Below are positions 34,264 through 58,649 of a stretch of DNA of 64,000 nucleotides, in pieces. The DNA lies in sequence record PX969468.1; one strand, 5' to 3'. Position numbers and translations under genes: made by a program. Positions within the stretch are counted from its first letter, which is position 1. Each line of letters begins with the position of its first letter. Source of the DNA: a phage. Below the pieces are notes generated by a model. It did no database searches. It saw only the letters and a list, made by a program, of their open reading frames with translations, and was not told the DNA's origin.

Positions 34264-35757
34264 TTACTTAGCGTACTCGATTAATTCCACAGTTTTCCCA
34301 AAGCTCGGAATATAATTTTTATTATACCCTTCGGTGAGAACCCATAGAGTATCGTACTTTTTCCACTTGTTGTCAACAGCCTTTTGTTCAAAGTTATGCT
34401 CAAAGTATAGGTCGGTCAGGACGATGACATCTTTTGCATTCGGTATGTTAGCATCCAGATACTCGAACACGCAAGCAGCTGTTGTGCCCCATGTTGAGTG
34501 GACCTCATAGTTGATCATCTCGTCTATGTTGCCGCGAGTGTATACTTTAACCTCTCCAACCTCAGTTGACCAACAGAACATTGTAACCTTAAACTCTTTA
34601 TACAGATTGCACAATCCTGTGATTTCATTGAACATTTTCTTTAAAGTTCTTTGAGAGATCGAGCCAGAAACGTCCAAAGCCACCACAATATCTATAGTGT
34701 TTTCCGGATTACGACCAGGAACAATAACGTGTTGGTTCTTGTTTATAGCTCCGACTTTTCGCATTGTGCTGGTCAAAGACCCAGATCGGCGACCAGGTTT
34801 TCTGTAGGTCAGTTCGGCCTTTCTTTTAGACAACATACGCTGCTTGATGATGTCTATATAATTGATTACAGGCTTACCTCTATTCTTGACAAACTCACGA
34901 ACCGCCTCAGGGCAACGACCTCCGGAAGCTTGCATTGCTGCCTCAAGCATGTCACCAGAGTCCTGCATGGCCTGATCTTTATCAGATTGGCTGATTACAG
35001 GTTGTGGCTGATCATACCCCATCGCCTTTCCAAGATCATCACTAGTGCCACCGTTACCACTCATGTGATCGTCGGTTTGTCGTTTATCTCCTTGAGAGTT
35101 CTCGCCTTTACCGTTCTTACTTTTACCGCTATTCTGATCTCTTTGCTTATCAAGAACCGCATAGACGTTCTCAGCAATCCATCCATGGAACCTCATGTCA
35201 CAGTAGCAACTAGCTAAGAAGCCAAAAGACTTACCTTTTACAAACGTAGTGCTTTTCCCCTTCGGGAAGAAAACACAAGGGGGCTTGCTAAAGTCAACCA
35301 CAAGACCTGTGTTGATAACATGATCACAGGCAATATTGAACAGCTCCGGCTCAAAACTTTTGCCACGGACCAGATGATCACAGATAATATGCCCCACCTC
35401 ATGCGATAGAAGAAATGCCACCTCTTTCACAGATTTTGGGGAATAGAAAACCTCAGCCATCTCAAACTGCTTGTCAGTCAAAGATGCTTTAAGAATGGTT
35501 TTGCGCTCATCCGCCAATCCCATAATGAACTCAGGGCTGTAATAAATGCGTTTATGGTCTGTTGCCATGGTGGAGCACCATGTGTGGTTTTCTACGAACT
35601 GCAACCCTGACAACAGTGTGCCATAAAACGGCAGTTTTTCAAGAAGATACATACGTGCTGCCTGCAGCATTCGCAAGGCGTCATCTTTTTGTGCGGCAAT
35701 GATTTCTGAACTTCTGCTATCCATTAAAACTCCAGAAGGGGCCTTGGCCCCTGTCAT
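34264..35757 (-). CDS. VWA-domain protein with N-terminal putative zinc-metallopeptidase domain (DUF2201-like; MoxR-partner type)
   Basis: HExxH motif (LSHEVGHIICDH); VWA MIDAS motif (IVVALDVSGSIS) and later VIVLTD; TAATG coupling to upstream gene. Confidence 0.65.
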   Translation of the reverse strand: MTGAKAPSGVLMDSRSSEIIAAQKDDALRMLQAARMYLLEKLPFYGTLLSGLQFVENHTWCSTMATDHKRIYYSPEFIMGLADERKTILKASLTDKQFEMAEVFYSPKSVKEVAFLLSHEVGHIICDHLVRGKSFEPELFNIACDHVINTGLVVDFSKPPCVFFPKGKSTTFVKGKSFGFLASCYCDMRFHGWIAENVYAVLDKQRDQNSGKSKNGKGENSQGDKRQTDDHMSGNGGTSDDLGKAMGYDQPQPVISQSDKDQAMQDSGDMLEAAMQASGGRCPEAVREFVKNRGKPVINYIDIIKQRMLSKRKAELTYRKPGRRSGSLTSTMRKVGAINKNQHVIVPGRNPENTIDIVVALDVSGSISQRTLKKMFNEITGLCNLYKEFKVTMFCWSTEVGEVKVYTRGNIDEMINYEVHSTWGTTAACVFEYLDANIPNAKDVIVLTDLYFEHNFEQKAVDNKWKKYDTLWVLTEGYNKNYIPSFGKTVELIEYAK

Positions 35758-36809
35758 TATTTAACGTGCTTGAAAATACCAGCCAACTCGGTCATTGTCA
35801 TGCGGGTGGTCTTCATAAGGTCTGTCATAGCCTTCTCCATAATTGGAGATACTACCATAAAGTTACCTTTGGTGAAACCTTTATTCCAATCGGTCACTAA
35901 TAGTGGTTTAAGTCCGGTCCCGAGACGCTCACCAGTTAAAGCACAACATTTTCGAATATACGTGCTCTTAAACTGACTGAATGACAGATCAACTTTCATA
36001 CCTGCATCGTAGAACGTCTGGCAATAGAAAGTGTAAGCTTTGGCAATCTCAACATCGTCAGGCAGTGCAGGAACCTCTTCTGTAAGCTCTTCTTCGGCCT
36101 CTTGAGGCTCTTTTTCCTCTTCGTGATCCTGTTGCATCATTTCTTCAATCTCTTCTGTTACAGGCTCATTTACGATGTCAGAAATGTGCTTGTTGGCTCC
36201 ACGATTAGCCATGAAGTTTTTAAAATCCTGCATTGGTGACATATCTTCCTCCCATTCTTCGTCAAAGAGTGCTAGTTTATCCTCTTCCGTTCCATATTGC
36301 AAGATGAAATCTTCAAAAGTGTAATCACCTTTCAATTTCTCCATACGCTCTTCGCTCAGGTGGAGCATCATCTGCTGGACAATTTTTCGATCAGTTTTGT
36401 CTTTAATCAAGACTGCGGTCTTTTTATCTACCAGACAGTCCTTTAGAGAGTTGCATCTCAATCCCACCACACAACAATTATCAACAGCATAAGGACCTTC
36501 ATCATCTATCCGCTCTAGGGAGGGGTAGAAAGGATTTCCCAGTCCGTTTTCATCTGTGTGCATGTCGAAAGGTATAAGGGTATAGTCGCACACCCCCTCT
36601 CCTAAAAGTTTTTTACCAAATAGGAGGTATTCTTCCCATGACAGGTTGAACTCTATATCTCGTTTCCGTGCATTATTTTGTTTGCGTCTGTATTTTTTGA
36701 GCAAGCGCTCTAACTCTTCTGGTGTATAATATTTTTCAAGATTCATGAGTTGTCTCTCGTGCTCTGTAAGTGAAGAAATCTTATCAATTGTCTCAACAGA
36801 TGTCAACAT
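35757..36809 (-). CDS. acidic hypothetical protein with two copies of an HNH_3-like motif (Arg in place of first His)
   Basis: PSLERIDDEGPYAVDNCCVVGLRCNSLK and PLLVTDWNKGFTKGNFMVV; long Glu-rich linker; first gene of leftward block. Confidence 0.4.
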   Translation of the reverse strand: MLTSVETIDKISSLTEHERQLMNLEKYYTPEELERLLKKYRRKQNNARKRDIEFNLSWEEYLLFGKKLLGEGVCDYTLIPFDMHTDENGLGNPFYPSLERIDDEGPYAVDNCCVVGLRCNSLKDCLVDKKTAVLIKDKTDRKIVQQMMLHLSEERMEKLKGDYTFEDFILQYGTEEDKLALFDEEWEEDMSPMQDFKNFMANRGANKHISDIVNEPVTEEIEEMMQQDHEEEKEPQEAEEELTEEVPALPDDVEIAKAYTFYCQTFYDAGMKVDLSFSQFKSTYIRKCCALTGERLGTGLKPLLVTDWNKGFTKGNFMVVSPIMEKAMTDLMKTTRMTMTELAGIFKHVK

Positions 36810-36819
36810 CAAAAACGTG

Positions 36820-36848
36820 TTGACTTTACTCTAAATCTCCGATATAGT
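36820..36848 (+). promoter_or_regulatory. sigma70-like promoter TTGACT-N17-TATAGT driving rightward early block
   Basis: ttgact 36820-36825, tatagt 36843-36848, in divergent intergenic region. Confidence 0.5.
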
Positions 36849-36888
36849 GCACCCATTCGAAAGAAAACTAACATAGGAGCACTCACTC

Positions 36889-37788
36889 ATGGCAAATCTT
36901 AACAGTTTTAGTACGCGGTGGAAACAGGACATAACAACCAATCTTTCAGCTGGGGACATCCTTTCTGCAATTTACGAGGCTTTAGATGATAAAGCTACTT
37001 CAAAAGCGGTTTGTACCAACCCACTAATTCCTATAGTGATGAAGGTGATTGAGCGTAGATTGGTATCGGGGTCTGATAAGTGGACATATTTAGATAATGA
37101 AGGACACACCTATTCCAACGGGTATGTCGATATAAAAGTAGAATACGCGGTATCATACCGCCGGAGCGGTTCTGTGACTTTCAACTTTTCTGGAGGTTTT
37201 CGATCTCTGGCAACTTCACCTTTTGTTTCCTCAGAAGAGAAGTTTGAACTTCCGTTCCTTTGGATGATGGCTAACGCGACAGGAAAAACCCCCGTGAGCA
37301 TTCGCGTAAAATACAACTACAACGGGTCCAGTAAGATCTATGCCGAGAGTATCTCAGCAAGTTTTTATTTTGTGATGGGGGATGGAATCCTCAAGCACAT
37401 AAAGATGTGCGATATGCATGATGTTATAAATGAAGTGACTGATAAGAATGTTTTAGTGAAGGACCTCAACAATTTCTATACACCTGGGGACTATTACGTC
37501 AACCGCCCACTGTGCATCTTTAATGCCGCACACCCTTTAGGTGAATACCTGATCGTTAATAGTGACATTGCTAACAACATTTTTGAACTGGCAAGAGTAC
37601 AAAATGAGGTATTGACATCCTGCAAAAGTGGTGATAAATTTACTGATGAAGAGATGGGTGTTTTAGAAATGATGGGGTATAAATGCAGTCTTTGGGTAGA
37701 TGAGGTGTTTAATGACTACATCTACGGACAGGATATTTACCCGTTAAAGAAGTATACTGATACAAGTTTAATTTATGCGGGGATTTGA
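36889..37788 (+). CDS. hypothetical protein
   Basis: 299-aa ORF, first gene of rightward block. Confidence 0.45.
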   Translation: MANLNSFSTRWKQDITTNLSAGDILSAIYEALDDKATSKAVCTNPLIPIVMKVIERRLVSGSDKWTYLDNEGHTYSNGYVDIKVEYAVSYRRSGSVTFNFSGGFRSLATSPFVSSEEKFELPFLWMMANATGKTPVSIRVKYNYNGSSKIYAESISASFYFVMGDGILKHIKMCDMHDVINEVTDKNVLVKDLNNFYTPGDYYVNRPLCIFNAAHPLGEYLIVNSDIANNIFELARVQNEVLTSCKSGDKFTDEEMGVLEMMGYKCSLWVDEVFNDYIYGQDIYPLKKYTDTSLIYAGI

Positions 37789-38063
37789 CTATGATGAAGG
37801 CATGTGGTAATGTATATTACGTCGGTGAGCATGTTCAGGCAGACAGTGTGTGGAAATCTATTAAGTCCACCACTGACGATGCCTTTCTGAGTGGACTATG
37901 TTTCCCCAATCCGGGAGACATCCTCCCTCACCCTGGAGATTTTGTTATCAACAAGATGGACGGTTATACCGTGTGCCTGATGGTTGAGAAAATCTTTTTA
38001 GACACTAGGCACAATCACCGTCTTGTGTTAAAATTTCAAGAATGTAAAATGACAATTGCCTAA
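37785..38063 (+). CDS. hypothetical protein
   Basis: 92-aa ORF, ATGA overlap. Confidence 0.35.
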   Translation: MTMMKACGNVYYVGEHVQADSVWKSIKSTTDDAFLSGLCFPNPGDILPHPGDFVINKMDGYTVCLMVEKIFLDTRHNHRLVLKFQECKMTIA

Positions 38064-38076
38064 GGAGGCCTTACCT

Positions 38077-38433
38077 ATGTCTAAAGTTACTTATCGTGCA
38101 GCTATTTACTGCAATGAACACCCAATCAATAATGATGGTCACTGCCTTTTTAAAGAAAATCAGTTGGGCTGTATTGTCCTACCTGATGAAGGGGAAGGTT
38201 ATCTGATTGCATTGACAGGGTTTGAGCCTGAAGCTCTGGAAGCCAATCTGGACTACCTGGTAGAAGAGGGTGCTGCAGACCTGGTTGCTAATGGCCTCTC
38301 CGTAAGCCTTGACGAAGTGGAGCGCTTCATGGGCAATTACCGTGTAGTGCGGGAGTTTACTATCGATGTGGAAACTCCAGAGTGGGGTAGCACTGAAACT
38401 AATGCCGAAGAAAAAGAAGAGGAGGTAGAATAA
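38077..38433 (+). CDS. hypothetical acidic protein
   Basis: ATG at 38077 follows AAGGAGG; ORF track start 38056. Confidence 0.35.
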   Translation: MSKVTYRAAIYCNEHPINNDGHCLFKENQLGCIVLPDEGEGYLIALTGFEPEALEANLDYLVEEGAADLVANGLSVSLDEVERFMGNYRVVREFTIDVETPEWGSTETNAEEKEEEVE

Positions 38434-38690
38434 TGAAAGTACAGATCTTGACTAATGCCGAGAAGATGTTTATTGAAGATACACCTTTTGAAGCTGGTGA
38501 GCTACAGTTTGTTTATTTTGTTGACTTAGATAAGGTGTTTCCTGCACTGAATCTGGGTCTGGATGAAGTTCCTCATAAGGTTTTGTGCCAAGTTGTTCGT
38601 GCCTTAGCGGCAGAGGGGGAGTTCCGCACCCTTCAAGATGTCCAGACCTACGGGTATCTTGAACTACAACGAGAAGAAGAGGTGGACTGA
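38433..38690 (+). CDS. hypothetical acidic protein
   Basis: 85-aa ORF, ATGA overlap. Confidence 0.35.
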   Translation: MKVQILTNAEKMFIEDTPFEAGELQFVYFVDLDKVFPALNLGLDEVPHKVLCQVVRALAAEGEFRTLQDVQTYGYLELQREEEVD

Positions 38691-38692
38691 TA

Positions 38693-39073
38693 ATGGCACG
38701 GTGGAAGACAACAGTTGACCTTCATGATCAGTGGTTAGGACGCATCACTGAAGACGGGAAACTAGTGGAGTGGGACAATAAGCATGTTAGCGAGTTGGCA
38801 AGCATTGTGGCTGGCAAGTTACGCTCCAAGTTCCCTGAACAACTGGATCCTGATAATTCAAAGTTCGATCCTGAGTTGGAGGATGTTGTATACTACTTCG
38901 ATACCGTGGATGACTACGATGCGTGGTTTGCAGCACGAGAGCTTTACCCACAAGGCTCTGCTATGCGCCAGATGGAAGAAGATTATCCTCCGTGCGAGCA
39001 ATTTAATAGCGCAATGACTTGCCTCTACGATTGGGCAGATAAGAACCTTGTCTGGATTCGGACTGCATTCTAG
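38693..39073 (+). CDS. hypothetical protein
   Basis: 126-aa ORF. Confidence 0.4.
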   Translation: MARWKTTVDLHDQWLGRITEDGKLVEWDNKHVSELASIVAGKLRSKFPEQLDPDNSKFDPELEDVVYYFDTVDDYDAWFAARELYPQGSAMRQMEEDYPPCEQFNSAMTCLYDWADKNLVWIRTAF

Positions 39074-39079
39074 CAGGTA

Positions 39080-39382
39080 GTGGCAAGGATGCCACTTAAA
39101 AGAGTAATAAACATGTTATACCAGAAACACGAACTTTGTGCAGAAAAAGAGTTAAATTTTGACAAAGTTATCCACAGATATTGTTATGGAAAAACCGGAA
39201 GACAACTAAGAAGATGCACTCCAGCATTCTTTCACCCCAGCAGGCGGCTAAGTCCTGAAGAGGCGACAGCAGAAAGGGTTGCATACAACTGGGAAGTTGT
39301 GTACGATATTGACAGATCCGATGTGACATCTGTTTTGGAAAACTTTGAAAACACTTACACACAAGTAGAGGATTTTTACTAA
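39080..39382 (+). CDS. hypothetical protein
   Basis: 100-aa ORF. Confidence 0.3.
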   Translation: MARMPLKRVINMLYQKHELCAEKELNFDKVIHRYCYGKTGRQLRRCTPAFFHPSRRLSPEEATAERVAYNWEVVYDIDRSDVTSVLENFENTYTQVEDFY

Positions 39383-40566
39383 TGTCAAGAAACGTATTTG
39401 AAAGTGGTCAAATCACTGTCCGTGAGTTGCCAGCTATCATTCAGTTTGCCCAGCGTCATAACCGATCTGTCCTGATTTTAGGACCAATGGGTGTGGGAAA
39501 GAGTCAGGTGATGAAGCAGATCGCTGATAATATGTTCGGTGAGCGAGATGACAACCTGGTTGACGTGCGGCTGTCAGATAAAGATCCTGCCGACTTATCT
39601 GGGCTACCTATCCCTGTAGAAGCTGATGGAACTACACGTACAGTGTTTGCAATTCCAGAATTTTGGCCTGCAGATCCGAACTGGAGCGGAATTATCTTTC
39701 TGGATGAGCTTACTCATGCAGATAACTATCTGCAAAAGGTTGCAATGCAGATTATGCTCGACCACAAGTGCGGCACCTATGCATTCCCTAAAGGCTCTGT
39801 TTTTGTGGCTGCGGGTAACCGTTCTACAGATGGTGCTGTTCTTTCGGCGCTCGAAGCTCCTCTGGCTAACCGCTTTATCATTGTAGAGGTTACAAGCAAT
39901 GCAGAGGTGTTTATTGAGGACTACGCATTCCTCAACGGGGTTCACTCCTCTGTAATTGGGTATCTGAAAAGAGTTCCATCAGCTATTGATAATTATGAGG
40001 CTATGGCTGAGATTAATTGTCCATCTTTTGCCACACCACGATCTTGGGTTGCTGCATCTGACATCTTGCACGATTTTGACAGCGGTATTATTTCTGACGC
40101 TATGGCCCGTGTTCTTCTGCAAGGTGCTATTGGTCACACTGCAGCGGTAGAGATCTGGACCTACCACACCAAGAAACGCAACTTACCGGAAATCGGTCGG
40201 ATTATGGCAGGGGGTTGCAAAGAATACGTAGGTCCTAAACAGCCAGACATCTTGTGGATTCTTGGATCTGAAGGTTGTATCGCTATTCGTAATATGATGG
40301 AAAATGCAAGTATCTCCGACGAAGATCTTGTTAGCTGTGTGGCAAACTTCCTCGATTTCCTTTGGGAAAACTTCAAGGACGAGAACCGAGATTTTGTATT
40401 CTCAGTCTTTATGGCGATGATGAAACCTAATGCCTTAGGAAATGCCTTGCTTATCGGTAAAGGTCGTGACAAGATTGTTGCTCAGCTGATCAAAGCATAC
40501 CCAAACCTGATGAAGATTGTAAAAGAGTTTGGTGAAGAGTTTAGCGCCATTTTGGCTAAAGCTTAA
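39382..40566 (+). CDS. AAA+ ATPase, MoxR/RavA-like
   Basis: Walker A LILGPMGVGKSQ, Walker B IIFLDELTHA; size and layout of MoxR-class ATPases; VWA partner at 34264..35757. Confidence 0.7.
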   Translation: MSRNVFESGQITVRELPAIIQFAQRHNRSVLILGPMGVGKSQVMKQIADNMFGERDDNLVDVRLSDKDPADLSGLPIPVEADGTTRTVFAIPEFWPADPNWSGIIFLDELTHADNYLQKVAMQIMLDHKCGTYAFPKGSVFVAAGNRSTDGAVLSALEAPLANRFIIVEVTSNAEVFIEDYAFLNGVHSSVIGYLKRVPSAIDNYEAMAEINCPSFATPRSWVAASDILHDFDSGIISDAMARVLLQGAIGHTAAVEIWTYHTKKRNLPEIGRIMAGGCKEYVGPKQPDILWILGSEGCIAIRNMMENASISDEDLVSCVANFLDFLWENFKDENRDFVFSVFMAMMKPNALGNALLIGKGRDKIVAQLIKAYPNLMKIVKEFGEEFSAILAKA

Positions 40567-40575
40567 GGAGGTTGT

Positions 40576-40956
40576 ATGGCTAAAGTAGGTAAGCGGGGAA
40601 ACTACCTGGTGGTATTGACCGAGGAGCCGGAGAAGGAGTACGAATGCAGCTCCACTTGCGTGATCGATATCCGAGAAAAAGATGTAGATGAAATCTGGTT
40701 TAAAATATTGGACGCTTGCGATAGCAGTGATTATTTCTTCATCTATGTCAACGATAAGGCTGGGTTCTTCCATGACGACGGAGAGTTGCCGTATGAAATC
40801 TATGAACTTGTAGAGGCTTGCCATCGTGGAGATGCGGAGTTGTTTGGCCTACGGCTGAAAAGCGGTAAATTCTTCTATCAAGATGAGTGCATGAATCTTC
40901 ATAACTTTGTAGAGGGAACTTGCAACGATGGAGAGATTTTGGCACACTACGATTAA
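40576..40956 (+). CDS. hypothetical protein
   Basis: 126-aa ORF with RBS (aaggagg). Confidence 0.4.
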   Translation: MAKVGKRGNYLVVLTEEPEKEYECSSTCVIDIREKDVDEIWFKILDACDSSDYFFIYVNDKAGFFHDDGELPYEIYELVEACHRGDAELFGLRLKSGKFFYQDECMNLHNFVEGTCNDGEILAHYD

Positions 40957-40968
40957 TTTCTAATACCA

Positions 40969-40994
40969 CCCCGCTTCGGCGGGGATTTTCTATT
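40969..40994 (+). terminator. rho-independent terminator (UUCG tetraloop)
   Basis: ccccgc-ttcg-gcgggg then attttctattt. Confidence 0.65.
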
Positions 40995-41004
40995 TGGAGT
41001 TATT

Positions 41005-41505
41005 GTGAAAATTAAGATCTTTGCTATTATTTTGAGCGCATTTTTATCGCTGCCTGTTGTTGCAGCACCAAAACAAAAAGTATATCATACTTGCAAGCCC
41101 TCAGATACTAAGGAAAACATTTTGGCATGTAATATCTACAGGGAAGCTAGAGGGGATGGCACGATGGGTATGCTGGCATCTGGGTTTGCCACATTAAACA
41201 GGAAATCTCACCCTAAATACCCAGACACTATAAGAAAGATTGTCTACCAACCTAACCAGTTTTCGTGGACAAACCACGGCAAAACTTTTAAGGTGACAGA
41301 AAAAGATTCATGGGATCACGCTAAAAGTCTTGCAAAGATGCTTCTAAAGGTCTATAATAACAACCATGTTGCATACATGGCTATGGACATAACAGGTGGA
41401 GCAACACACTACCATACAACCAAAGTACTACCGAAATGGGCAAAAAAGATGCAGAGGACAGCTCAATTCGGGAGCCATATCTACTACAAGGAGCGCAATA
41501 AATGA
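41005..41505 (+). CDS. secreted cell-wall hydrolase, SleB/Hydrolase_2 family
   Basis: GTG start with RBS; N-terminal Sec-type signal peptide MKIKIFAIILSAFLSLPVVAAP; motifs NIYREARGD...ATLNRKSHPKYPDTIRKIVYQPNQFSW. Confidence 0.7.
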   Translation: MKIKIFAIILSAFLSLPVVAAPKQKVYHTCKPSDTKENILACNIYREARGDGTMGMLASGFATLNRKSHPKYPDTIRKIVYQPNQFSWTNHGKTFKVTEKDSWDHAKSLAKMLLKVYNNNHVAYMAMDITGGATHYHTTKVLPKWAKKMQRTAQFGSHIYYKERNK

Positions 41506-43484: not shown

Positions 43485-43494
43485 GGAGACCAAG

Positions 43495-46408: not shown

Positions 46409-46468
46409 TAAGATGTTAGTCTAAAGGGGAGGCACTCCTCCCCACAAAAACTAAGGAAGCACTAAACG

Positions 46469-47166: not shown

Positions 47167-47178
47167 GGAGAAGGTAGT

Positions 47179-47661: not shown

Positions 47662-47667
47662 CACTAG

Positions 47668-47695
47668 GCCCTGCCCGAAAGGGTGGGGCTTTTTG
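47668..47695 (+). terminator. rho-independent terminator (GAAA-loop hairpin), duplicated at 58665
   Basis: gccctgccc-gaaa-gggtggggc then tttttg. Confidence 0.6.
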
Positions 47696-47712
47696 CATTA
47701 GGAGACAGCAAA

Positions 47713-48477
47713 TTGAAATTTATCTATAAAGAACACTACCACAAAGGTGTTGTGTGGAGTCTATTTGACGGATCTGGCGGTGCAGTCATTGACTGGGCAA
47801 AAGCTGGATATCTGTGCCTGTGCTTTAACGCAGAAGGTGCTGACCACGGCAGTTATGCAGAGGTGATCACCGATCATCCAAATATTCACTATGTAGATTA
47901 TTGGATTGATCCATGGTTCCCTCAGGAAACTTTCTGCATGTACCCAGCTCCGGACTTTGTTCTTGCATTTCCTCCGTGCACGCATTTAGCGGTATCAGGT
48001 GCTGCACATTTTAAGAAAAAGCTGGCTAAGGATCCTTTGATCCAAATTAATGCTGTAAAGGATGCTCGGGTTGCGGAAGAGCTGGGAGAGATTTACGATT
48101 GCCCGTGGCATGTAGAGAATCCTGTTGGTGTTATGTCCACACTGTGGCGCAAACCTGATTACCGTTTTCATCCTTCTGACTATGGCGGGTATTTACCGGA
48201 GGATGATGTAAACCCCTGGTTTCCTGAATTTATAGCTCCACGTGATGCCTATCCAAAAATAACTTGCGGCTGGATAGGTAATGGATTTATAATCCCGGCC
48301 ACAAAACCTGTCCCGCAAATAGTTGACGCGGTTAGCGGGTATTCCATGCAACACGCCAAGCTGGGTGGAAAGAGTGCAAGAACGAAGATGATCCGAAGCC
48401 TCACACCACGTGGCTGGGCAAAAGCCGTATTCTTAGCAAACGAGCCTGTAGTAAGGAGCAGAATTAATGGGAAGTAA
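47713..48477 (+). CDS. DNA (cytosine-5)-methyltransferase-like protein
   Basis: motif I-like SLFDGSGG, motif IV-like FPPCTHLAVSG, motif VI-like HVENPVG; ORF track start 47683 lies inside the terminator hairpin, so TTG at 47713 after AGGAG is used (uncertain). Confidence 0.4.
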   Translation: MKFIYKEHYHKGVVWSLFDGSGGAVIDWAKAGYLCLCFNAEGADHGSYAEVITDHPNIHYVDYWIDPWFPQETFCMYPAPDFVLAFPPCTHLAVSGAAHFKKKLAKDPLIQINAVKDARVAEELGEIYDCPWHVENPVGVMSTLWRKPDYRFHPSDYGGYLPEDDVNPWFPEFIAPRDAYPKITCGWIGNGFIIPATKPVPQIVDAVSGYSMQHAKLGGKSARTKMIRSLTPRGWAKAVFLANEPVVRSRINGK

Positions 48478-50545: not shown

Positions 50546-50603
50546 TGTTTAACCAAGAGTGGGAGGGGTAGTACAACCGCCTCCCCTTTAAGGAGAACAC
50601 TTT

Positions 50604-53027
50604 ATGAGTATGTATAGCTTCGATTTTGAGGCCTCTGGGCTTTTGGAAGATCCAGACCTTTATTATCACTGCGGCCTGTTTAAAGCGTTGAATAAGAACC
50701 GTTTTATGCTGTTCCTTCCTCTAAATGACCGCACACACTACTCCGAGGAGGATATAGAAAAGGCTAAGAACTTCATTCTGGCAAAGAAAACTCTTTATAA
50801 AGATTTTGAAGTTCGCATAGCAGATTTTTCAGAGTTGGAAGGTTGGCTTACAGGAAATTCTGACTGGTCACCAACAGCTTTGAACTGCCATAACTGCTAC
50901 AGTTATGACTTTATGCTGATGGAAAGATTATCTGGTATTCATTTTGATATGTTCCGTGATCCTAAATGTATGGGGACTATCAACGATCACCAGGTTAACC
51001 TGTTTGATACGTTGGCGATGAGCCGAATCTTGTGGCCTGATCGCCCTTTACCAAAAGGTTGTCCGGACTCTGTATTCAACCCGGTTACTAAGAAAATGCA
51101 GCCTGTTGGTCCTCACGGCCTTATGGCATGGGGCTACGCCCTTGGTAACCAGAAAGTTCAAATTGATGACTGGCGCGATCTTCCGTTATGGAAGTATGTG
51201 GATCGTGTATTTGAGGACGTTATCATCCAGGAGCTGCTCTGGAAAGAGCTGGTAGCGGAATCAAAAGGTGTATTCTACGGCAAATCTGACATGCAGAACT
51301 TTATGTACGATCCTGCCAAAGAGAAGCCGAAAGGGTTCAAGAAGATCACCTGGAAGAACGCATTACGTCGAGGCATGTTGCAGCACTTCCTGATGGAGCT
51401 GCAGGCCCGTCAGGGTGTATACTTCGACATAGATGGAGCTATTGCTTTACGTGACCGTTGCGATGCGTGGATGAAAGAAATCGCTGATCGTGTTGAACCA
51501 CAACTGCCTTTAAAAGAGCTGTCAATGTCTCAGCGGCCCAAGTTCCCTGAAAAGCCGTTTAACCAAGATGGGACAATCTCTAATAATGGTTGGAAATGGT
51601 TAAAAGATAAGCTTGGCTATCCTGTGGACATGAGTGCTTTAGAGTTCAAAGCCCCACCTAAGCGAGCATTTACCTCTACAGGAGATGTCAGTAAGATGGG
51701 GATAAAATGGTGTGAAGAGATGGGCTGCAAAGACCACGATAAGATGGCTGATTTCTTGAGAGGCTATATTAAGGGCACCTCCACACCACAACCTTTACCT
51801 AAAGAGCTAATGGATCAGGCAATAAGTGATCTACAGCAGAAGCGAATGCCGGACTGCAAGATACCTATGAAAATCAGCAATCAGGACGACATTAAGCGAT
51901 ACCTGATCAGTGCTGGTTGGCTTCCGACAATGTGGAGAACTAAGGATGTAACTAAAGACAGCAAGAAGAAAGCTTTACCTGATGCAGATGTTGATGCACG
52001 AGTATATGCATATATGGACGAGCTTTTGGAGTCAGAGTATTGTGACCTAATTATCAACTTCTGGAACAAAACTGATGCTAAGTTCCAGACAACCGTGCAC
52101 AAGTTCCGAAGCTTTCCTAACTCCGAAAGGATTAAAAAGGAAGTATTCGGGAAAATACGTAGAAAAGCTAGGGCACTTATTACTTCTCCGCAACTGAAAG
52201 ATACGTTTGGACACCTGTGTCCGAATCTTGAAAAATTGAACGGAGAGATGGCTAAAGATATCGTCTTATGGTTATCATTGCGAAACCGCAGATCGGTACT
52301 TGATCCAATCAAGGAGGATAAGGTTGACACTGGTCTTCTTAATCACCCACGTTTGAAGATTGACCATAAGCTTCCTGCTAAAAGCTCTGGATTAACAAAC
52401 ACTTCCAGACAGAAACACAGTATTTGTGCAAACATGCCTAAACCCTCTCCTAAAGTGGTTATGGGTAAAGAGATGCGTAGCTTGTGGGGTGTTCCTCCAG
52501 GATACTTTGAGATCGGTATCGACGGGTCCAACTTAGAGCAGCTTATCGGGGCTTGGGGTGCCTTTGAGTTCGACAACGGCCTGTATTACGATGTTGTAAG
52601 TAACGGAGACGCACACCAAAACAATGCTGAGGCATATACAAAAGTAGCAGGCAGAGAGGTGTCCCGTAACGACGGTAAACCTATCACGTATGGGGTTATG
52701 TACGGGGCACAAAAAGATAAAGTTGCAGATATGCTGGACATCTCTCCAGAGTTGGGACAAAGGGTAATCGATGCGCTTTGGGATGCCAACCCTGGTCTTA
52801 AGGGCCGTAAAGAGGATCTGGAGAAATTCTGGGAAGCAACGGGTAAGAAGTTTATCTACTCTTTTGATGGTCATGCCATCTGGACCCGATCTAAACACTC
52901 TTTACTTAATGCATACCAACAGAATGGTGGTGCATCGCTGTGTGACTTAGTTGGGATACTCATGCACCACCAAATGGTGAAGCGTGGGTGGTACGATGAA
53001 GGTGTTCGTCGTATTATTTATTACCAT
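50604..53027 (+). CDS. DNA polymerase, family A (T7 gp5-like), exon 1
   Basis: exo motif FDFEASGL...HCG; FDTLAMSRIL; GPHGLMAWGY; motif B RNDGKPITYGVMYGAQ; exon ends after His codon of motif C (IIYYH), then in-frame stop inside the intron. Confidence 0.85.
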
Positions 53028-53303
53028 AAATAACATTGTGGCTTCATAGAGTAATCTATGTCGAATAACCTCTTTAACTGCGGGAAGCCTAAACCTTATG
53101 GCAAGGTAATCCGCAACGAAGCGCTCAAAAGAGCGAACGCTCAGAGGCCATTCCGAAAGGAAGTAGACCAGCAAGTGCGGTCGAAATGGGAGGATTCCTG
53201 TGGTTGCTTATCATAGGAATATGAGATGGTCCGATCCTACGTGAAAACGTATGGCTATGCACGTAATGGTGCGGGGTAGCTTAACGACCTACCTGAACTA
53301 TTG
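53028..53303 (+). mobile_element. group I self-splicing intron (ORF-less, 276 nt) in the DNA polymerase gene
   Basis: 5' exon ends in U (ccaT) pairing with IGS gtgg at 53038-53041; intron ends with G at 53303; P/Q/R/S-like core elements in order (ctgcgggaag at about 53078; aatccgcaac at about 53108; ctcagaggcca at about 53140; gagatggtccg at about 53222); splicing restores HDE. Confidence 0.75.
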
Positions 53304-53657
53304 GATGAGTACCAACTTCAAGTGCCTGACACACCGAAGTATAAGACTGTGTACACCTTCGACACAATTGAAGAACTGGAAGCATTTAAGGCAGAACAGG
53401 AGGCCAAACTTCATGTGTTCGACGGTCATAAGTACAAAAAGGCACGCAAAGATGAGGACGGAAACGAAGTAGTTGACAGGGACGGAAACACGGTGTACGA
53501 TCCTATCCTGAACGATGACGGAAAGCTTGAACTTATCTGGAGCCCTGTGGGCGAAATGGTGGTGCATTGCTTCTGGCAAGCTTCTAAAATGATGGGCGTT
53601 CCGTTCCAGATCACAGGTGAATACTTGTGTGGTCGTAACTGGGGCGATTGTCACTAA
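53304..53657 (+). CDS. DNA polymerase, family A, exon 2
   Basis: begins DEYQLQV completing motif C as YYH-DE; C-terminus ...GRNWGDCH ends in His as T7 DNAP does; ORF track lists it as 53301..53657. Confidence 0.75.
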   Translation, partial: DEYQLQVPDTPKYKTVYTFDTIEELEAFKAEQEAKLHVFDGHKYKKARKDEDGNEVVDRDGNTVYDPILNDDGKLELIWSPVGEMVVHCFWQASKMMGVPFQITGEYLCGRNWGDCH

Positions 53658-53706
53658 TGTAAACTATCAACACACGGAAGTGTTGTTAGATAGAGAGGAG
53701 ACTTTT

Positions 53707-53991
53707 ATGGTAGTAGAACCGACAAAAACATTTACCTCCATGACTATTCCTGTTATTATGCAGGTAGAGTGCGTTCAGGTGTCTCAAGTGTGGCCAGGTA
53801 CTAAAATTCCAACAGGGCCTGATTTCTTTCAGGTCGGCAAAGTGTATAATGTCTGGAAGGCACCGGATTGTTACCCTTTCATTAAAGATGACCGTGGAAT
53901 GTTATGGTATCTGGGAAATGATTTGACACTGCATCTTGGAAATGCTATTATTGCAGTGTTCCGGCTCAACAAGAAGGAGGCAGATCAATGA
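53707..53991 (+). CDS. small protein, paralogue family A member 1
   Basis: ATG at 53707 after GAGAGGAG; core FFQVGKVYNVW...IKDDRGMLWYL shared with next two genes. Confidence 0.4.
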   Translation: MVVEPTKTFTSMTIPVIMQVECVQVSQVWPGTKIPTGPDFFQVGKVYNVWKAPDCYPFIKDDRGMLWYLGNDLTLHLGNAIIAVFRLNKKEADQ

Positions 53992-54215
53992 CAACTTTGG
54001 TTAAAGCGACGTTTGTAGAAGAAAAGATGACAGACCTGTCATTCTTTGAAGAAGGTAAGGTCTACAAGGTTTACTACGATAAGGATCGCAGGAACAATAT
54101 GATCGAAGACGAGGAAGGTGTTGCCTGGTTTATCTCCCATCTGGCAAATGGTGAGTATCATATCTATGGAACCACCCTACTTGCCAAGTTTGTAGCTGTT
54201 GAAGAGGATCTATGA
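53988..54215 (+). CDS. small protein, paralogue family A member 2
   Basis: FFEEGKVYKVYY...IEDEEGVAWFISH; ATGA coupling. Confidence 0.4.
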   Translation: MTTLVKATFVEEKMTDLSFFEEGKVYKVYYDKDRRNNMIEDEEGVAWFISHLANGEYHIYGTTLLAKFVAVEEDL

Positions 54216-54406
54216 AAGTAAAGTATCTGGCTGAAGGTATGAGTAGGTATTTTACCCTCGGAGAGGAGTATTGGCCCTTTACGGAAAATGGAGATGTATA
54301 CGTGAAGGATGACCAAGGTGTGCCGTGGTTTCTGCACCATAATGGGTTGGGGTATTCCATCTACTGCGGTGCAGTGAACAACACAACCCTTGCAGAGTTT
54401 GTCTAG
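54212..54406 (+). CDS. small protein, paralogue family A member 3
   Basis: YFTLGEEYWPF...VKDDQGVPWFLHH; ATGA coupling. Confidence 0.4.
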   Translation: MKVKYLAEGMSRYFTLGEEYWPFTENGDVYVKDDQGVPWFLHHNGLGYSIYCGAVNNTTLAEFV

Positions 54407-54416
54407 AGGAGGCAGA

Positions 54417-54788
54417 ATGTTAGTAAAAGGTACCCACACAGTCAAGCAACGTATTGAAGTTGAGATCGATGATTGTGAGCTGAAGCATATTTTGCGGTCA
54501 TGCTCCAACGTTTTGCTCCTTAGTATTCTCCAGGAGCGAGCGGAGAACGAGTTCTTAAATGCACTGGCAGGTCGCCCCGGTGACTTCTGTGTGCGTAAGC
54601 GTGGTGACAACAAGTCATGGTTGTGGGAAATCGATGCCGACTGGGATTACCACAAAAATGAGGGTATAGATGAGCCTATTCGTGAATTGACAGACAAAGA
54701 GATTCAGATGTACAATGAAGTTTGTCATTGGGCAACACGCCAACAAATTTACCTCGACCCTGTGTGGCTGATTGAAAATAGCCATTGA
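54417..54788 (+). CDS. hypothetical protein
   Basis: ATG at 54417 after AGAGGAGG; ORF track start 54390. Confidence 0.4.
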   Translation: MLVKGTHTVKQRIEVEIDDCELKHILRSCSNVLLLSILQERAENEFLNALAGRPGDFCVRKRGDNKSWLWEIDADWDYHKNEGIDEPIRELTDKEIQMYNEVCHWATRQQIYLDPVWLIENSH

Positions 54789-54864
54789 CAAGAAGTAAGA
54801 TTAGATATAAGATGCTTCACACAAACAGAGCGTTGATTTTTAAATAACCAAGGAGACTGCCAAG

Positions 54865-55119
54865 ATGAAAATCACTTTGAAGCCAGAAGAAGTTGCAAAT
54901 GACCGAGCTTTTAAGGATTGCACAGTCGGTGCAATTTATGAAGCAGAGTTTTGTGAGAACCCTCTGGTAAAAGCCCTTCTGGAAGAAGGGGCCCCTTTAT
55001 CACAAGAAGAGATTGATGAGCTGGAAAACTCAGCACAGTGCCTTACCTTTAAAGACGATGAAGGAGACTCTGTCTTGTGCACTGTTAACGAAGTAGTTTT
55101 TGTAAAACCTGAACATTAA
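54865..55119 (+). CDS. small acidic protein, paralogue family B member 1
   Basis: KPEEVANDRAFKDCTVGAIY...FKDDEGDSVLCTVNEV, similar to 55183..55443 and 56142..56387. Confidence 0.4.
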   Translation: MKITLKPEEVANDRAFKDCTVGAIYEAEFCENPLVKALLEEGAPLSQEEIDELENSAQCLTFKDDEGDSVLCTVNEVVFVKPEH

Positions 55120-55122
55120 TAC

Positions 55123-55151
55123 TTGACAACAGTGATAGGGCCTAATATAAT
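55123..55151 (+). promoter_or_regulatory. consensus sigma70 promoter TTGACA-N17-TATAAT with -10 inside a palindrome
   Basis: ttgaca 55123-55128, tataat 55146-55151; palindrome atagggcc-taatataa-tggccctat spans the -10. Confidence 0.55.
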
Positions 55152-55182
55152 GGCCCTATCAAAACGAAAGGGGACCACAGCA

Positions 55183-55443
55183 ATGACTAAACAATATCAA
55201 CGAATTAAAGCCAAGGTTAAGCCAGACTATCTGGAGAAGGACTCTGCTTTTCGGGACTGCACAGCGGACAAAGTTTACACAGGGGCCGTCCTGTTGAACG
55301 ATGAACTTGAAGTAGATGTTCTGGGTAAAGAGGCCGTTATCGAGGATGACAACGGTGACTGTGTTTTCTGCACCACACGGGAGCTAGAAGTTTTAGAATA
55401 CTTCGGTGAAATCTTCAACTCCTTAGACGAAGAGGAAGCGTGA
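55183..55443 (+). CDS. small acidic protein, paralogue family B member 2
   Basis: ATG at 55183 after aaagggga; ORF track start 55123 (TTG) would overlap the promoter; KPDYLEKDSAFRDCTADKVY...IEDDNGDCVFCTTREL. Confidence 0.4.
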   Translation: MTKQYQRIKAKVKPDYLEKDSAFRDCTADKVYTGAVLLNDELEVDVLGKEAVIEDDNGDCVFCTTRELEVLEYFGEIFNSLDEEEA

Positions 55444-55832
55444 TGAAAAATATTTGGGATATTGATATCTTTGAAGCCTCTAAGCTTGACGGTGCTGATG
55501 GAGTGATTATGGTGTCTGATGGCAAGGCAACACTAACTTCCGGAGATACCATCTATGCCTTGGACGAGCTGGCGCTTCTGAAATCTACCGGTAACACTTT
55601 AGAGGAGCGTCTTCAAGGCTTCGCCTTCAAAGAAGGCACAAATACCGCCATGATGGGTACCACACGGACAGTCCAGGTTGGTAACGGTGTCTATATGATC
55701 ATTGCTGTGTGTCCTAAATTCAGCAACGTCAACAAAGATGATGCTGACGCTGTCAACGATGTGGTTGTTCTCTTCGTGGGTGACGCTATGGCAGACCTGA
55801 TGAATGCAGGAGAAGCGGCAAATGAAGACTGA
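55440..55832 (+). CDS. hypothetical protein
   Basis: 130-aa ORF, ATGA overlap. Confidence 0.35.
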   Translation: MMKNIWDIDIFEASKLDGADGVIMVSDGKATLTSGDTIYALDELALLKSTGNTLEERLQGFAFKEGTNTAMMGTTRTVQVGNGVYMIIAVCPKFSNVNKDDADAVNDVVVLFVGDAMADLMNAGEAANED

Positions 55833-56124
55833 AAACATTACCCCAGCAGGGTTCTTAAAAGTATACCGTGAACTGCTATATACTACAGAGGACAGTGTTC
55901 TAGAGTATCCAGAATATCTTTTGCTGTATAAGTATCTACAGGAAGCTGGTGAAAATCTGCCAGTTAGTGCAGAAGGTGGTCCGAACTGGATATACAGCGC
56001 ATGGAGAAAGGTTGACATTCTCCCAGATCCAGGTAAAGATATGGTAGTTTGGCAGCTTATCAACAACATCGGGATTCCAATCTTCGATGAAGCTGTTAAA
56101 ATCTATTTTGAACTTGACGATTAA
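55804..56124 (+). CDS. hypothetical protein (start uncertain; ATG at 55822 possible)
   Basis: 106-aa ORF overlapping upstream gene end. Confidence 0.3.
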   Translation: MQEKRQMKTENITPAGFLKVYRELLYTTEDSVLEYPEYLLLYKYLQEAGENLPVSAEGGPNWIYSAWRKVDILPDPGKDMVVWQLINNIGIPIFDEAVKIYFELDD

Positions 56125-56141
56125 TATCAGGAGACCTTAAG

Positions 56142-56387
56142 ATGGCTGAAGCAGTTGCTCGCGCGGGACAGAAAGTACGTTGTGTTGAAGTAGGTTTTGG
56201 TGGTAAAGGGTGTCAAAACTTGACTCAAGGTAAGGAATACGCTGTTATTTCTGGTGGTGGCGACGAAAGTATTGTGTTCGAGGGCCACATCCTGGATGCT
56301 GAAAACTTTGAAATCTTTGACGACGATGGGGATCCGATCACCTGCCTGCTGGACGGGAATTGGGGAACTTTCGAAGTGATTGGCTAA
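56142..56387 (+). CDS. small acidic protein, paralogue family B member 3
   Basis: KVRCVEVGFGG...FEIFDDDGDPITCLLDGNW shares the DD-GD-C core. Confidence 0.35.
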   Translation: MAEAVARAGQKVRCVEVGFGGKGCQNLTQGKEYAVISGGGDESIVFEGHILDAENFEIFDDDGDPITCLLDGNWGTFEVIG

Positions 56388-56397
56388 CAAATACCTA

Positions 56398-56426
56398 TTG
56401 TAATTTACAGAAGGGGATGCTAAAAT
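56398..56426 (+). promoter_or_regulatory. sigma70-like promoter TTGTAA-N17-TAAAAT with TG extension
   Basis: ttgtaa 56398-56403, tgctaaaat 56418-56426. Confidence 0.45.
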
Positions 56427-56470
56427 AGTGTCTCCTTCTATGTTGTTCAAATAAAATCGGAGATTCCATA

Positions 56471-56836
56471 ATGGAACAAATGAACGATCAAGCGTCGGTT
56501 GCGATGAACGAGCAAGAACAACCTCAAGAATTTTTCTTAGGGTTAAGTAAAGATCAAGTGTCTCTTCTGCTAGTGCTTTCTTCTTTCATGGGAAGACTTC
56601 AGGAGCTCACACAACAACCGGAGGCTGAACAATTATTTCAGGCTCTGCGTGAAGAAGAAAAATATCGTCGTTTGGACTATGCCTTAGGTTGGGTAGCTCA
56701 ACAACGAGATATGCTGATGGCCCTCTCTGGGACCACAAGTTTTGCAATGGGCCTGTTGGCTCAAGTTCAGGACAAATTAATTCAAGCAGGGTTTGCACAC
56801 ACGGCAAACACTAACGAAGAACAAGGAGACAAATAA
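56471..56836 (+). CDS. hypothetical protein
   Basis: 121-aa ORF with RBS (ggagattcc). Confidence 0.4.
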   Translation: MEQMNDQASVAMNEQEQPQEFFLGLSKDQVSLLLVLSSFMGRLQELTQQPEAEQLFQALREEEKYRRLDYALGWVAQQRDMLMALSGTTSFAMGLLAQVQDKLIQAGFAHTANTNEEQGDK

Positions 56837-58062
56837 TGAGCGTTATTCAACAATTCGCTAACCCGATGAATCCGCGTGAAACTGTTTTACTGGCTCACGG
56901 CATGATCAAGCGTGTTAGCATCAAGCCTATCAAAGGTGCTGATCCTACAACAGGTATTAAAACCACTGTGTGGCAAGGTAAGAAAATTGAGTCCAGCCAC
57001 ACCATCTCTTTACTGATTTCTGAACTGGATTCCTCTGATAACCTACTTCAAGGTGGTGAAGAAGTTTGGATCAGTATGGGCGATAAGCTGCTTAAACCGG
57101 GTCATCAAGACTCTGTCTCTGTTAAAATTGATGACAAGTGGGAAACCGTAACGCCAGGATGGATCGTAAATATCCCTTTGAAGGCAAACGAGCATAACGG
57201 TAAGACCTACTACAAAGGCTCACTGGCTAAGATGGTTAAGCTGGGTGCAGGAGAGGCTCCAGCAGCGACTCAGCAGCAAAAACCGCAACAAGGTGCACAA
57301 TCACAAGGCCAGAAGCAGAAACATCAGCAGAATGCCAATCAGGACGTTTTACGCATCTATGGTGATGTGACTCAGATTGTTGGCAACGTGGTTACTGTTA
57401 ATGACCACAAGATTGGCGAAGGTGCTATGGTTGTAACTGATGAGCAGCTTAAAGACCTGGTGGTAGGTGGTCGTGTTGCAGCCATTGTTGACAAAGACAC
57501 CGGAAACATTATCAGTGGTTTCAAGGCCTATCCTCCTAAGGCAGAGAACGGCACTCAAGGCTCTGGTGGCAAGCGTAAATCCTCTTACGACCCTATCGGT
57601 GTGGAAACGGGGCATAGCATCAATGCGTTGCAAATCATCCTGGATCGCGGGTTTAAGGTAGACGACCCACTAGGAGTGGCTAAAACACTACACGTAGTCA
57701 CTATTGAGCTTAAGAAAGAGTATGCTCAAGCCACCAACCGAACTGAAGATGAAGTAGGTGCCAGTGTCGGTAATGCGGTGTTGAACGCTTGTCGCCGTAT
57801 TGACAAGAAAACGAAAGTTGATGATTTTGCAGCGGCAATTACTGCAGAAGCAAAAGATGTCTTGACTAATCTGGCTGAGCCGTTGTACGATTGGATCAAG
57901 AACGGTGCTGGGTCAACTGACCATCAAGAACCTCAGGCTGCCAAACAGGAAGCAGCTCCACAGCAAAACACTGTAGACGCTCCTCCTGTAAATGATGAGG
58001 AAGATGACCCAATGGATCAGAATCCAGCACAGTATGAGTTCGATGACTCGATCCCCTTCTGA
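56836..58062 (+). CDS. single-stranded DNA-binding protein-like (SSB-type acidic C-terminal tip)
   Basis: Gln/Gly-rich linker then acidic tail ending DEEDDPMDQNPAQYEFDDSIPF, resembling canonical SSB DDDIPF tip; sits in replication module. Confidence 0.5.
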   Translation: MSVIQQFANPMNPRETVLLAHGMIKRVSIKPIKGADPTTGIKTTVWQGKKIESSHTISLLISELDSSDNLLQGGEEVWISMGDKLLKPGHQDSVSVKIDDKWETVTPGWIVNIPLKANEHNGKTYYKGSLAKMVKLGAGEAPAATQQQKPQQGAQSQGQKQKHQQNANQDVLRIYGDVTQIVGNVVTVNDHKIGEGAMVVTDEQLKDLVVGGRVAAIVDKDTGNIISGFKAYPPKAENGTQGSGGKRKSSYDPIGVETGHSINALQIILDRGFKVDDPLGVAKTLHVVTIELKKEYAQATNRTEDEVGASVGNAVLNACRRIDKKTKVDDFAAAITAEAKDVLTNLAEPLYDWIKNGAGSTDHQEPQAAKQEAAPQQNTVDAPPVNDEEDDPMDQNPAQYEFDDSIPF

Positions 58063-58070
58063 GTCCAGTT

Positions 58071-58649
58071 ATGAAATGCAAACGTTGTGGGGAGGACAAG
58101 GAGGCCTCCGACTTCTATACCAGCAACAAATCAACGTGCAAAGAGTGTTGCAAGAAGGCCAGTAGAGAGTCTGACCAATTTGCTAGAGACTCTTCAGAAA
58201 AAGGTGTAATACGCGTGTTGTACAAGGCTCAAAAGTGCAACAGCAAGCAAAGAGGTCACCCTCCTCCGACTTACACCAAGAAAGAGTTTAAGGATTGGCT
58301 ATACCTAAACGGTTACAAAGAGTTGTATGACCAATGGGTAGCCAGCGGATACGACAAAAGGAAAAAGCCTTCTTGTGACAGGATAGATGATTTCAAAGGA
58401 TACTCTTTTGATAATATCCGTTTAACGACTTGGGGAGAAAATAAAGACAAGCAGACAGAGGATATTCTATTGCATAGAAGCACCAGCGGTAGACGGTGTA
58501 AAAACGTAAGAAGGCTGGACAGGAATGGCAACATTCTCAAAGAGTGGGTATCTCACAACTCTTGTAGGAGAGAAACCGGAATATGTGTTGATTACTACAT
58601 TCATGAAAAAATTCCAGCCCCCGATGGGTACTTCTATGAATACTTTTAA
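58071..58649 (+). CDS. HNH_3-like endonuclease-family protein (zinc ribbon plus HNH-like motif with Arg at first His position)
   Basis: CKRCG...CKECC zinc ribbon; PSCDRIDDFKGYSFDNIRLTTWGENKDK resembles the HNH_3 core. Confidence 0.4.
   Translation: MKCKRCGEDKEASDFYTSNKSTCKECCKKASRESDQFARDSSEKGVIRVLYKAQKCNSKQRGHPPPTYTKKEFKDWLYLNGYKELYDQWVASGYDKRKKPSCDRIDDFKGYSFDNIRLTTWGENKDKQTEDILLHRSTSGRRCKNVRRLDRNGNILKEWVSHNSCRRETGICVDYYIHEKIPAPDGYFYEYF

Follow-up and report, generated by a model that had tools for sequence, protein, structure and literature searches.

A PacI-type His-Me finger domain shared by an Srd-like protein and a putative homing-type endonuclease of an rV5-like Vequintavirus

Two proteins, here called A and B, encoded in a 64,000-nucleotide stretch of phage DNA (sequence record PX969468.1; "the window" denotes the whole stretch that was analysed) share the motif P-S-x-(D/E)-R-I-D-D-x-x-x-Y-x-x-D-N-(8)-N-x-x-K. 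This motif is the active-site core of a PacI-type beta-beta-alpha-metal (His-Me finger) domain, in which Asp/Glu-Arg takes the place of Asp-His and a tyrosine follows seven residues on. The window represents an rV5-like Vequintavirus of E. coli whose A and B regions are 92-97% identical to those of phages phita32, FV3, V5 and approximately 115 others. In related records, protein A is named 'anti-sigma factor; Srd-like protein' (GenBank) or 'HNH endonuclease' (RefSeq), while protein B is named 'endonuclease VII' or 'putative homing endonuclease'. Considering all of the evidence together, it is probable that the shared motif marks a PacI-type His-Me finger nuclease core, that B is a homing-type endonuclease, and that A is a host-takeover protein of the Srd family with a functional site. 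This reading is directly supported by homology, predicted fold, residue conservation, a presence/absence polymorphism of the B gene and the homology of A to T4 Srd; from these observations we infer catalysis, the target, homing and the involvement of RNase E. The two genes and their motifs lie as follows:

35757..36812, minus strand: open reading frame (ORF) of protein A, 351 codons from TTG 36812; the probable start at ATG 36746 gives 329 amino acids (aa)
36441..36524, minus strand: intact motif of protein A, PSLERIDDEGPYAVDNCCVVGLRCNSLK
58071..58649, plus strand: protein B, 192 aa, a putative free-standing homing-type endonuclease gene
58368..58451, plus strand: motif of protein B, PSCDRIDDFKGYSFDNIRLTTWGENKDK

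The shared motif and its domain

The full motif occurs once in each of the two ORFs, and a pattern search of the six-frame translation of the window returned exactly two sites, those in A and B. When the window was shuffled 300 times, the core pattern turned up 0.023 times per shuffle on average (maximum 1) and the full pattern never. A direct BLASTP comparison of A with B aligns only 16 residues (E 0.005), and scans of A, B and T4 Srd against Pfam and NCBIfam gave no meaningful match for the shared domain; both results would be expected if the likeness were a matter of chance and the proteins were not HNH-like. The shuffles contradict this explanation, as do comparisons at the level of families: hhalign joins the A family to the B family over 105 columns (81.5% probability, E 1.1e-5), a hidden Markov model (HMM) built from A-type sequences only finds B as its sole other match among the 694 ORFs of the window (E 2.1e-7), and an HMM built from B and its homologues finds A as its sole other match (E 2.4e-4). 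No third copy of the domain was found among these ORFs. The probability of a chance match is therefore negligible, and the comparisons indicate that the two families are homologous across approximately 85-105 residues. A reading of the letters alone, made before this analysis and here called the sequence-only reading, had proposed that the two proteins share this motif, which is confirmed well above chance, and the profile-profile similarity by which that proposal could be checked is significant. The same reading had likened the motif to the HNH_3 core; it is indeed a nuclease-type core, but no Pfam HNH family was matched even at E up to 10.

Among solved structures, the best match is PacI for both proteins. 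A PDB sequence search with B alone finds PacI, aligning sCDRIDDFKGYSFDNIRLTTWGENK over gvDRSDSFEGYSPQNARLACFICNR, and the profiles of the B family, the shared domain and the A family are each collinear with PacI over 26-88 residues. The single-sequence PDB search with A had no match, and the full-length A-family profile returned only a spurious match to PH1500. In addition, one PHROG family, phrog_1035, is matched by B (E 8.2e-33), A (E 1.8e-10), PacI residues 1-118 (E 6.9e-10) and T4 Srd (E 9.4e-8). The AlphaFold model of B is confident (predicted local distance difference test score, pLDDT, 93.9), with strands at residues 100-104 and 116-120 and a helix at 121-134; the model of A has the same strand and helix elements in its N-terminal domain (pLDDT 83-95) and a C-terminal domain of moderate confidence. 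Foldseek searches against viral models (BFVD) returned Srd-like 'anti-sigma factors' and giant-virus HNH proteins, the latter agreeing with the published make-up of His-Me finger group 20, which consists of PacI and giant-virus proteins (PMC5714182). Structure prediction thus gives a beta-beta-alpha fold in both A and B. Of the alternatives offered by the sequence-only reading, that of a diverged nuclease family is supported by this fold and by PacI as the best solved-structure match, while the suggestion that the proteins are not HNH at all is refuted by the predicted fold, the PacI matches and the family homology. The His-less variant is nevertheless of an already known kind, that of PacI with a tyrosine in the role of the histidine, and not a new nuclease family.

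Both families are large. A profile of the A family, searched against 1.84 billion cluster representatives, matched approximately 2,100 of them with E-values no higher than 0.001, of which 149 reached 1e-10 or lower, and a word-indexed search with the profile of the shared domain found at least 821 proteins, the best-ranked being B-like and approximately 160-200 aa long. Pfam and NCBIfam have no model for either family, and neither is among the members of His-Me finger group 20 as published, which are mainly from giant viruses (PMC5714182). His-less PacI chemistry, known before from a single restriction enzyme and a small number of proteins of giant viruses, may now be placed at the core of two large phage families.

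Active-site positions and their conservation

The passages on PacI in PMC5714182 and PMC4081073 describe an enzyme without a general-base histidine, in which a loop tyrosine takes over and one metal ion is held by an aspartate and an asparagine. Its catalytic residues are given as Arg93, Tyr100 and His42 (PMC13139853, PMC4081073, PMC5714182), with Arg93 occupying the place of the canonical general-base histidine (PMC13139853). The corresponding residues are:

PacI D92: B D103, A E100, T4 Srd E64
PacI R93: B R104, A R101, T4 Srd R65
PacI Y100: B Y111, A Y108, T4 Srd Y72
PacI N104: B N115, A N112, T4 Srd N76
PacI N113: B N124, A N121, T4 Srd N85
PacI H42: B H63, A I53, T4 Srd not His

The spacing from the arginine to the tyrosine is seven residues in all four proteins. 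Moreover, the helix of B is in register with that of I-HmuI, and a one-residue gap in the loop puts D103-R104 of B, the equivalent of PacI D92-R93, on I-HmuI D74-H75. The earlier statement that an arginine sits where the general-base histidine normally does is therefore correct.

These positions are conserved to a high degree in both families. Among 177 A-type N-terminal domains, the acidic residue, the tyrosine and the first asparagine are present in all 177, the arginine in 173 and the second asparagine in 172; among 163 B-type domains, 162 have the acidic residue, 161 the tyrosine, 157 the first asparagine, 162 the arginine and 161 the second asparagine. An upstream arginine (R51 in A, R61 in B) is near-invariant in both families. 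A histidine at the PacI H42 position, where the alignment is weak (E 0.12), is found in 127 of the 163 B-type domains, including B itself (H63), and B has lost none of the PacI catalytic residues for which an alignment was possible. Where strand 1 ends, Asp/Glu-Arg replaces Asp-His; it is proposed that the loop tyrosine seven residues on would stand in for the missing histidine as it does in PacI, activating or supplying the nucleophile, and that the Asp/Glu together with the asparagine at the start of the helix would, by the same analogy, hold one divalent metal ion. What was observed is residue conservation; PacI-like chemistry for A and B would follow by analogy.

PacI itself (PDB 3LDY/3M7K; His-Me finger group 20, Jablonska et al. 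2017) resembles both proteins in having Asp/Glu-Arg with a tyrosine at Arg+7, an asparagine before strand 2, and a metal-ligand asparagine on the helix followed by a lysine, while its N-terminal Cys4 ribbon and, by the weak alignment in that region, its His42 have equivalents in B only. Of the PacI zinc motif C-G-Y-C-G, a vestige C-x-Y-T-G persists in the A family, and C75 alone remains of its cysteines in A. As a restriction enzyme of bacterial origin, PacI (142 aa) differs from both proteins in forming a homodimer, having two zinc sites and lacking a separate DNA-binding tail. Compared to PacI, B is without the second zinc site and has gained a NUMOD-like tail, whereas A has neither zinc site and no equivalent of His42, mostly carries Glu at the Asp position, and contains a dead tandem duplicate of the domain.

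Protein B and its insertion site

The features of protein B and its surroundings are:

58077..58148, plus strand: N-terminal Cys4 zinc ribbon (C3, C6, C23, C26), collinear with the first PacI zinc motif, its cysteines kept in 90% or more of the sequences
58200..58475, plus strand: PacI-type beta-beta-alpha-metal domain (residues 44-135) with R61, H63, D103, R104, Y111, N115 and N124
58503..58646, plus strand: C-terminal I-HmuI/NUMOD-like DNA-binding module, from the family profile and the Pfam matches of homologues
58063..58649, plus strand: insertion of approximately 0.58 kb relative to endonuclease-free relatives, with ends ambiguous by approximately 9 bp owing to the microhomology ATAC(C)TTTTAA
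58665..58686, plus strand: terminator-like hairpin followed by a T-run, directly 3' of the insertion and common to occupied and empty sites

The B-family profile matches residues 86-171 of I-HmuI (1u3e) at E 2.5e-4, and homologues of B pass the Pfam models NUMOD1 or I-HmuI_NUMOD-like, although the protein of the window has no Pfam match of its own. I-HmuI (PDB 1U3E) differs in its canonical general base His75, its N-terminal beta-sheet DNA-binding domain and its being encoded within an intron; compared to I-HmuI and the HNH_3/NUMOD homing endonucleases, B has the Arg and Tyr, a zinc ribbon and a free-standing gene. With a layout like that of I-HmuI, B may be a nickase that works as a monomer.

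The B gene is found in 52 of approximately 120 otherwise syntenic Vequintavirus records, as one copy each with 90-95% identity, while its flanks are found in all; presence and absence both occur within the single species Vequintavirus murica. Alignment of six occupied and five empty sites revealed a clean indel of approximately 0.58 kb between the last codons of the upstream gene, which encodes a protein of 408 aa, and the conserved terminator hairpin. The empty site of phages AlexBoehm and ime contains GATGACATACCGTTTTAACAATTAGTTAAC. The 3' end of the insert (GAATACTTTTAA) resembles the end of the host gene (GACATACCGTTTTAA), with GAA TAC TTT TAA in the former and ATA CCG TTT TAA at empty sites, and a short, repeat-like microhomology is thereby left at the two junctions, perhaps as a remnant of the insertion or of the target site. 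In these 11 genomes, the polymorphisms close to the left junction do not cleanly follow the presence of B.

Two versions of the 5' end of the insert were observed among the occupied genomes. The version in the window (MKCKRCGEDKEASDFYTSNKSTCKEC, region 58040..58110) comes after a separate stop codon of the upstream gene, while the rV5-type version has a longer N-terminus, a DGHLN insertion in the zinc ribbon and an overlap with the upstream gene, whose frame is extended. Since the rest of the gene is approximately 93% identical between the two types, the element is a mosaic. The upstream 408-aa protein (56836..58062, plus strand) has no Pfam match and includes a low-complexity stretch rich in Gln, QQQKPQQGAQSQGQKQKHQQN; among relatives, the residues at its C-terminus differ precisely at the insertion junction. 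Outside the Vequintaviruses, a B-family member with 37% identity lies among structural genes of a crAss-like phage. On that contig, it stands just upstream of genes with weak matches to the crAss ring protein and MUZ, and a gene for a Cas12f1-like TnpB is located a few kb away.

Taken together, the polymorphism, the clean indel, the crAss-like relative and the I-HmuI-like tail fit a free-standing homing-type endonuclease, which is what we propose for B. In co-infections with relatives that lack the B gene, such an enzyme would nick or cut their empty allele close to where the upstream gene for the 408-aa protein ends, and repair by recombination would carry the B gene across. The name 'endonuclease VII' given to phrog_1035 and many GenBank records would make B a Holliday-junction resolvase, and its N-terminal Cys-rich motif is in keeping with that name. 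However, neither B nor its homologues match the Pfam Endonuclease_7 model, B has no catalytic histidine, its tail is of the homing-endonuclease NUMOD type, and its gene is missing from more than half of the relatives and hence dispensable, unlike that of an enzyme of packaging or resolution; the label is therefore rejected and resolvase activity of this type considered very improbable. B would be an ordinary, though poorly annotated, mobile endonuclease; the point of modest interest is that the Srd family, to which A belongs, looks like an enzyme.

Protein A, its duplicate and the Srd family

The features of protein A are:

36408..36725, minus strand: N-terminal PacI-type beta-beta-alpha-metal domain (residues 30-135) with invariant R51, E100, R101, Y108, N112, N121 and K124
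36066..36311, minus strand: acidic linker between the two domains, probably disordered, with indels among relatives and pLDDT below 50 at residues 185-191 and 201-250
35760..36065, minus strand: C-terminal degenerate duplicate (residues 250-351) with the same helix-helix-strand-strand-helix order as the N-terminal domain
35826..35909, minus strand: decayed motif of the C-terminal copy, KPLLVTDWNKGFTKGNFMVVSPIMEKAM, without Glu-Arg, with Tyr changed to Phe and the second Asn to Glu
36778..36806, minus strand: sigma-70-like promoter (TTGACA, 17-nt spacer, TAAGAT, upstream TG), by consensus match only, within the long ORF and 5' of ATG 36746

The sequence-only reading had counted the motif twice in protein A. 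Residues 250-351 are a duplicate of the domain, as proposed, but the motif there has decayed. Across the family, hhalign aligns the N-terminal with the C-terminal domain at 97.8% probability (E 1e-12), and BLASTP finds the C-terminal copy similar to the N-terminal domain of T4 Srd (E 8e-4). In 142 relatives, the Glu-Arg, Tyr and second Asn positions of this copy are hydrophobic or variable, and structural residues alone persist (C290, T293, G294, D308 and N317). Judged by these alignments, the C-terminal copy is a true paralogous domain in which all catalytic positions have been lost.

The N-terminal domain ties A to Srd of phage T4, a link that the sequence-only reading had not made. Residues 30-165 of A align by BLASTP with residues 4-133 of T4 Srd (NP_049634; E 8e-8), which carries the motif SLERFDNNVGYIKGNVIAVKKKYNTFR with R25, E64, R65, Y72, N76 and N85; among PHROG families, A matches phrog_3118 (E 2.8e-112), phrog_1400 (Srd; E 9.2e-11) and also phrog_4592, 'decoy of host sigma70', and its structural matches in BFVD include Srd-like proteins. 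A and T4 Srd share a homologous N-terminal domain, the motif and a location among early or host-takeover genes. They differ in that T4 Srd has a helical C-terminal part without a detectable second copy, and RNase E binding has been reported for T4 Srd only. In contrast to B, protein A is present in 118 of 119 relatives, so that its gene is no mobile one. This gene stands first in a leftward block, and its end overlaps the start of the next gene. Its ORF opens at TTG 36812 or ATG 36809, while the annotation of rV5, which has its promoter P11 at the equivalent place, and database entries of 325 aa fit ATG 36746 (MNLEKYY…). Since the promoter lies inside the long ORF, the real start is probably ATG 36746, and the gene is probably early.

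Three accounts of the role of A need to be considered. The first takes its annotation at face value, as an anti-sigma factor or sigma-70 decoy. This annotation was passed down from T4, and the match of A to phrog_4592 is in line with it. However, the T4 record itself describes Srd as a 'postulated decoy of sigma factors RpoD and RpoS', the matched region is a nuclease-type domain, and the sole experimental report traced, as presented in the relevant passages of PMC13232886 and PMC4980113, concerns RNase E: T4 Srd is reported there to bind the N-terminal half of RNase E and to stimulate the decay of host mRNA. The anti-sigma label is therefore rejected, and we regard such a role for A as hardly credible. 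The report on T4 Srd and RNase E is said to come from Qi et al. 2015.

The second account holds that the domains are dead relics of nucleases reused for binding, with A an adaptor for RNase E or nucleic acid and B a DNA-binding protein. The reported action of T4 Srd through RNase E binding, and not as a nuclease (as described in the sections of PMC13232886 and PMC4980113 that treat it), accords with this account, as do the lack of an equivalent of PacI His42 in A-type sequences and the certain decay of the C-terminal copy. On the other hand, known inactive His-Me fingers (Smad MH1, Enpp and Tcd) have lost their metal ligands and Tyr/His (PMC5714182, PMC13139853). In the C-terminal domain of yeast Tcd (PDB 9HMO/9HMP), for example, Tyr, His and metal ligands are gone and the authors judged the domain inactive (PMC13139853), whereas A and B keep such residues. 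The D/E, R, Y, N and N of the motif are kept at 96-100% in hundreds of diverged sequences, while the duplicate in the same proteins has lost them; metal ligands and a tyrosine strictly kept beside a duplicate that lost them suggest a working site and not a relic of the fold. In addition, B combines the PacI catalytic residues with a scattered presence among relatives of the sort that is typical for genes of active homing endonucleases. Relics reused for binding are therefore unlikely, though far less so than the two alternative labels. The sequence-only reading had raised a similar idea, that of inactivated homing endonucleases repurposed as DNA-binding proteins; this does not suit B, which has kept the PacI residues and whose gene behaves as a mobile one, and applies only to the C-terminal copy of A, while for the whole of protein A inactivation is no more than a possibility.

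The third account, which we prefer, is that A is best read as an Srd-like host-takeover protein with a functional site, whether that site cuts nucleic acid or only binds it. Several observations weigh against this account or against the joint reading of A and B as a whole. At the position of PacI H42, where the alignment is weak (E 0.12), A has I53 and its family Ile, Leu or Val; the acidic residue is Glu rather than Asp in 140 of the 177 A-type sequences; and of the two Cys4 zinc sites of PacI, B keeps the first only and A neither. The lack of a His42 equivalent, the Glu and the lack of zinc sites all argue against simple PacI-like DNA cleavage by A. Only one of five models of A is confident, the other four having pLDDT of 44-50. 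No consistent co-conversion tract was found beside the B insertion in 11 genomes (6 occupied, 5 empty). Finally, the identity of A to T4 Srd is approximately 24% and confined to the N-terminal part, and no second copy of the domain was detectable in T4 Srd (248 aa), the C-terminal part of which is helical; the transfer of the RNase E function to A is therefore weak.

With these points in mind, A would act in host takeover like T4 Srd, speeding RNase E-dependent decay of host mRNA, and its conserved site would carry out chemistry on nucleic acid or tightly bind phosphate or metal. Our literature search found no paper that links Srd with HNH or PacI. The retention in the Srd family of the full PacI-type site except for His42 suggests an enzymatic part in host shutoff, a function described so far solely as activation of one protein by another. 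A stronger version of this idea, in which T4 Srd, A and their relatives are active PacI-type nucleases and not passive activators or 'anti-sigma factors', is tentative and more doubtful than not. HNH-type enzymes leave 5'-phosphate ends, and RNase E prefers 5'-monophosphorylated RNA as its entry substrate; cuts made by the Srd family in host RNA or another nucleic acid, if they leave such ends, would explain the burst of RNase E-dependent host mRNA decay. In addition, the dead C-terminal duplicate of most members could mimic the second subunit of the PacI dimer, giving a pseudo-dimer with a single site. The role of catalysis in Srd-stimulated, RNase E-dependent decay becomes testable at E64, R65, Y72 and N85 of Srd.

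The gene that follows A (34264..35757, minus strand) shares one base with the stop codon of A and encodes a putative DUF2201_N metallopeptidase (Pfam E 4.7e-28) together with a VWA-like DUF2201 domain (Pfam E 3.7e-11); the annotation of rV5 places a MoxR ATPase close by. In RefSeq, the rV5 orthologue of this gene (gp012) goes under the name 'HNH endonuclease', apparently propagated in error. The analysis corrects three names in use for rV5-like phages: 'anti-sigma factor', 'endonuclease VII' and the spurious 'HNH endonuclease' on this DUF2201 gene. Among the database records, 16 entries go by the name 'Campylobacter phage' (MG0656xx) and list Campylobacter jejuni as their host. Over both the A and the B regions, they have 92-95% identity to Vequintaviruses of E. 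coli; their host labels look doubtful and may be due to contamination or mislabelling.

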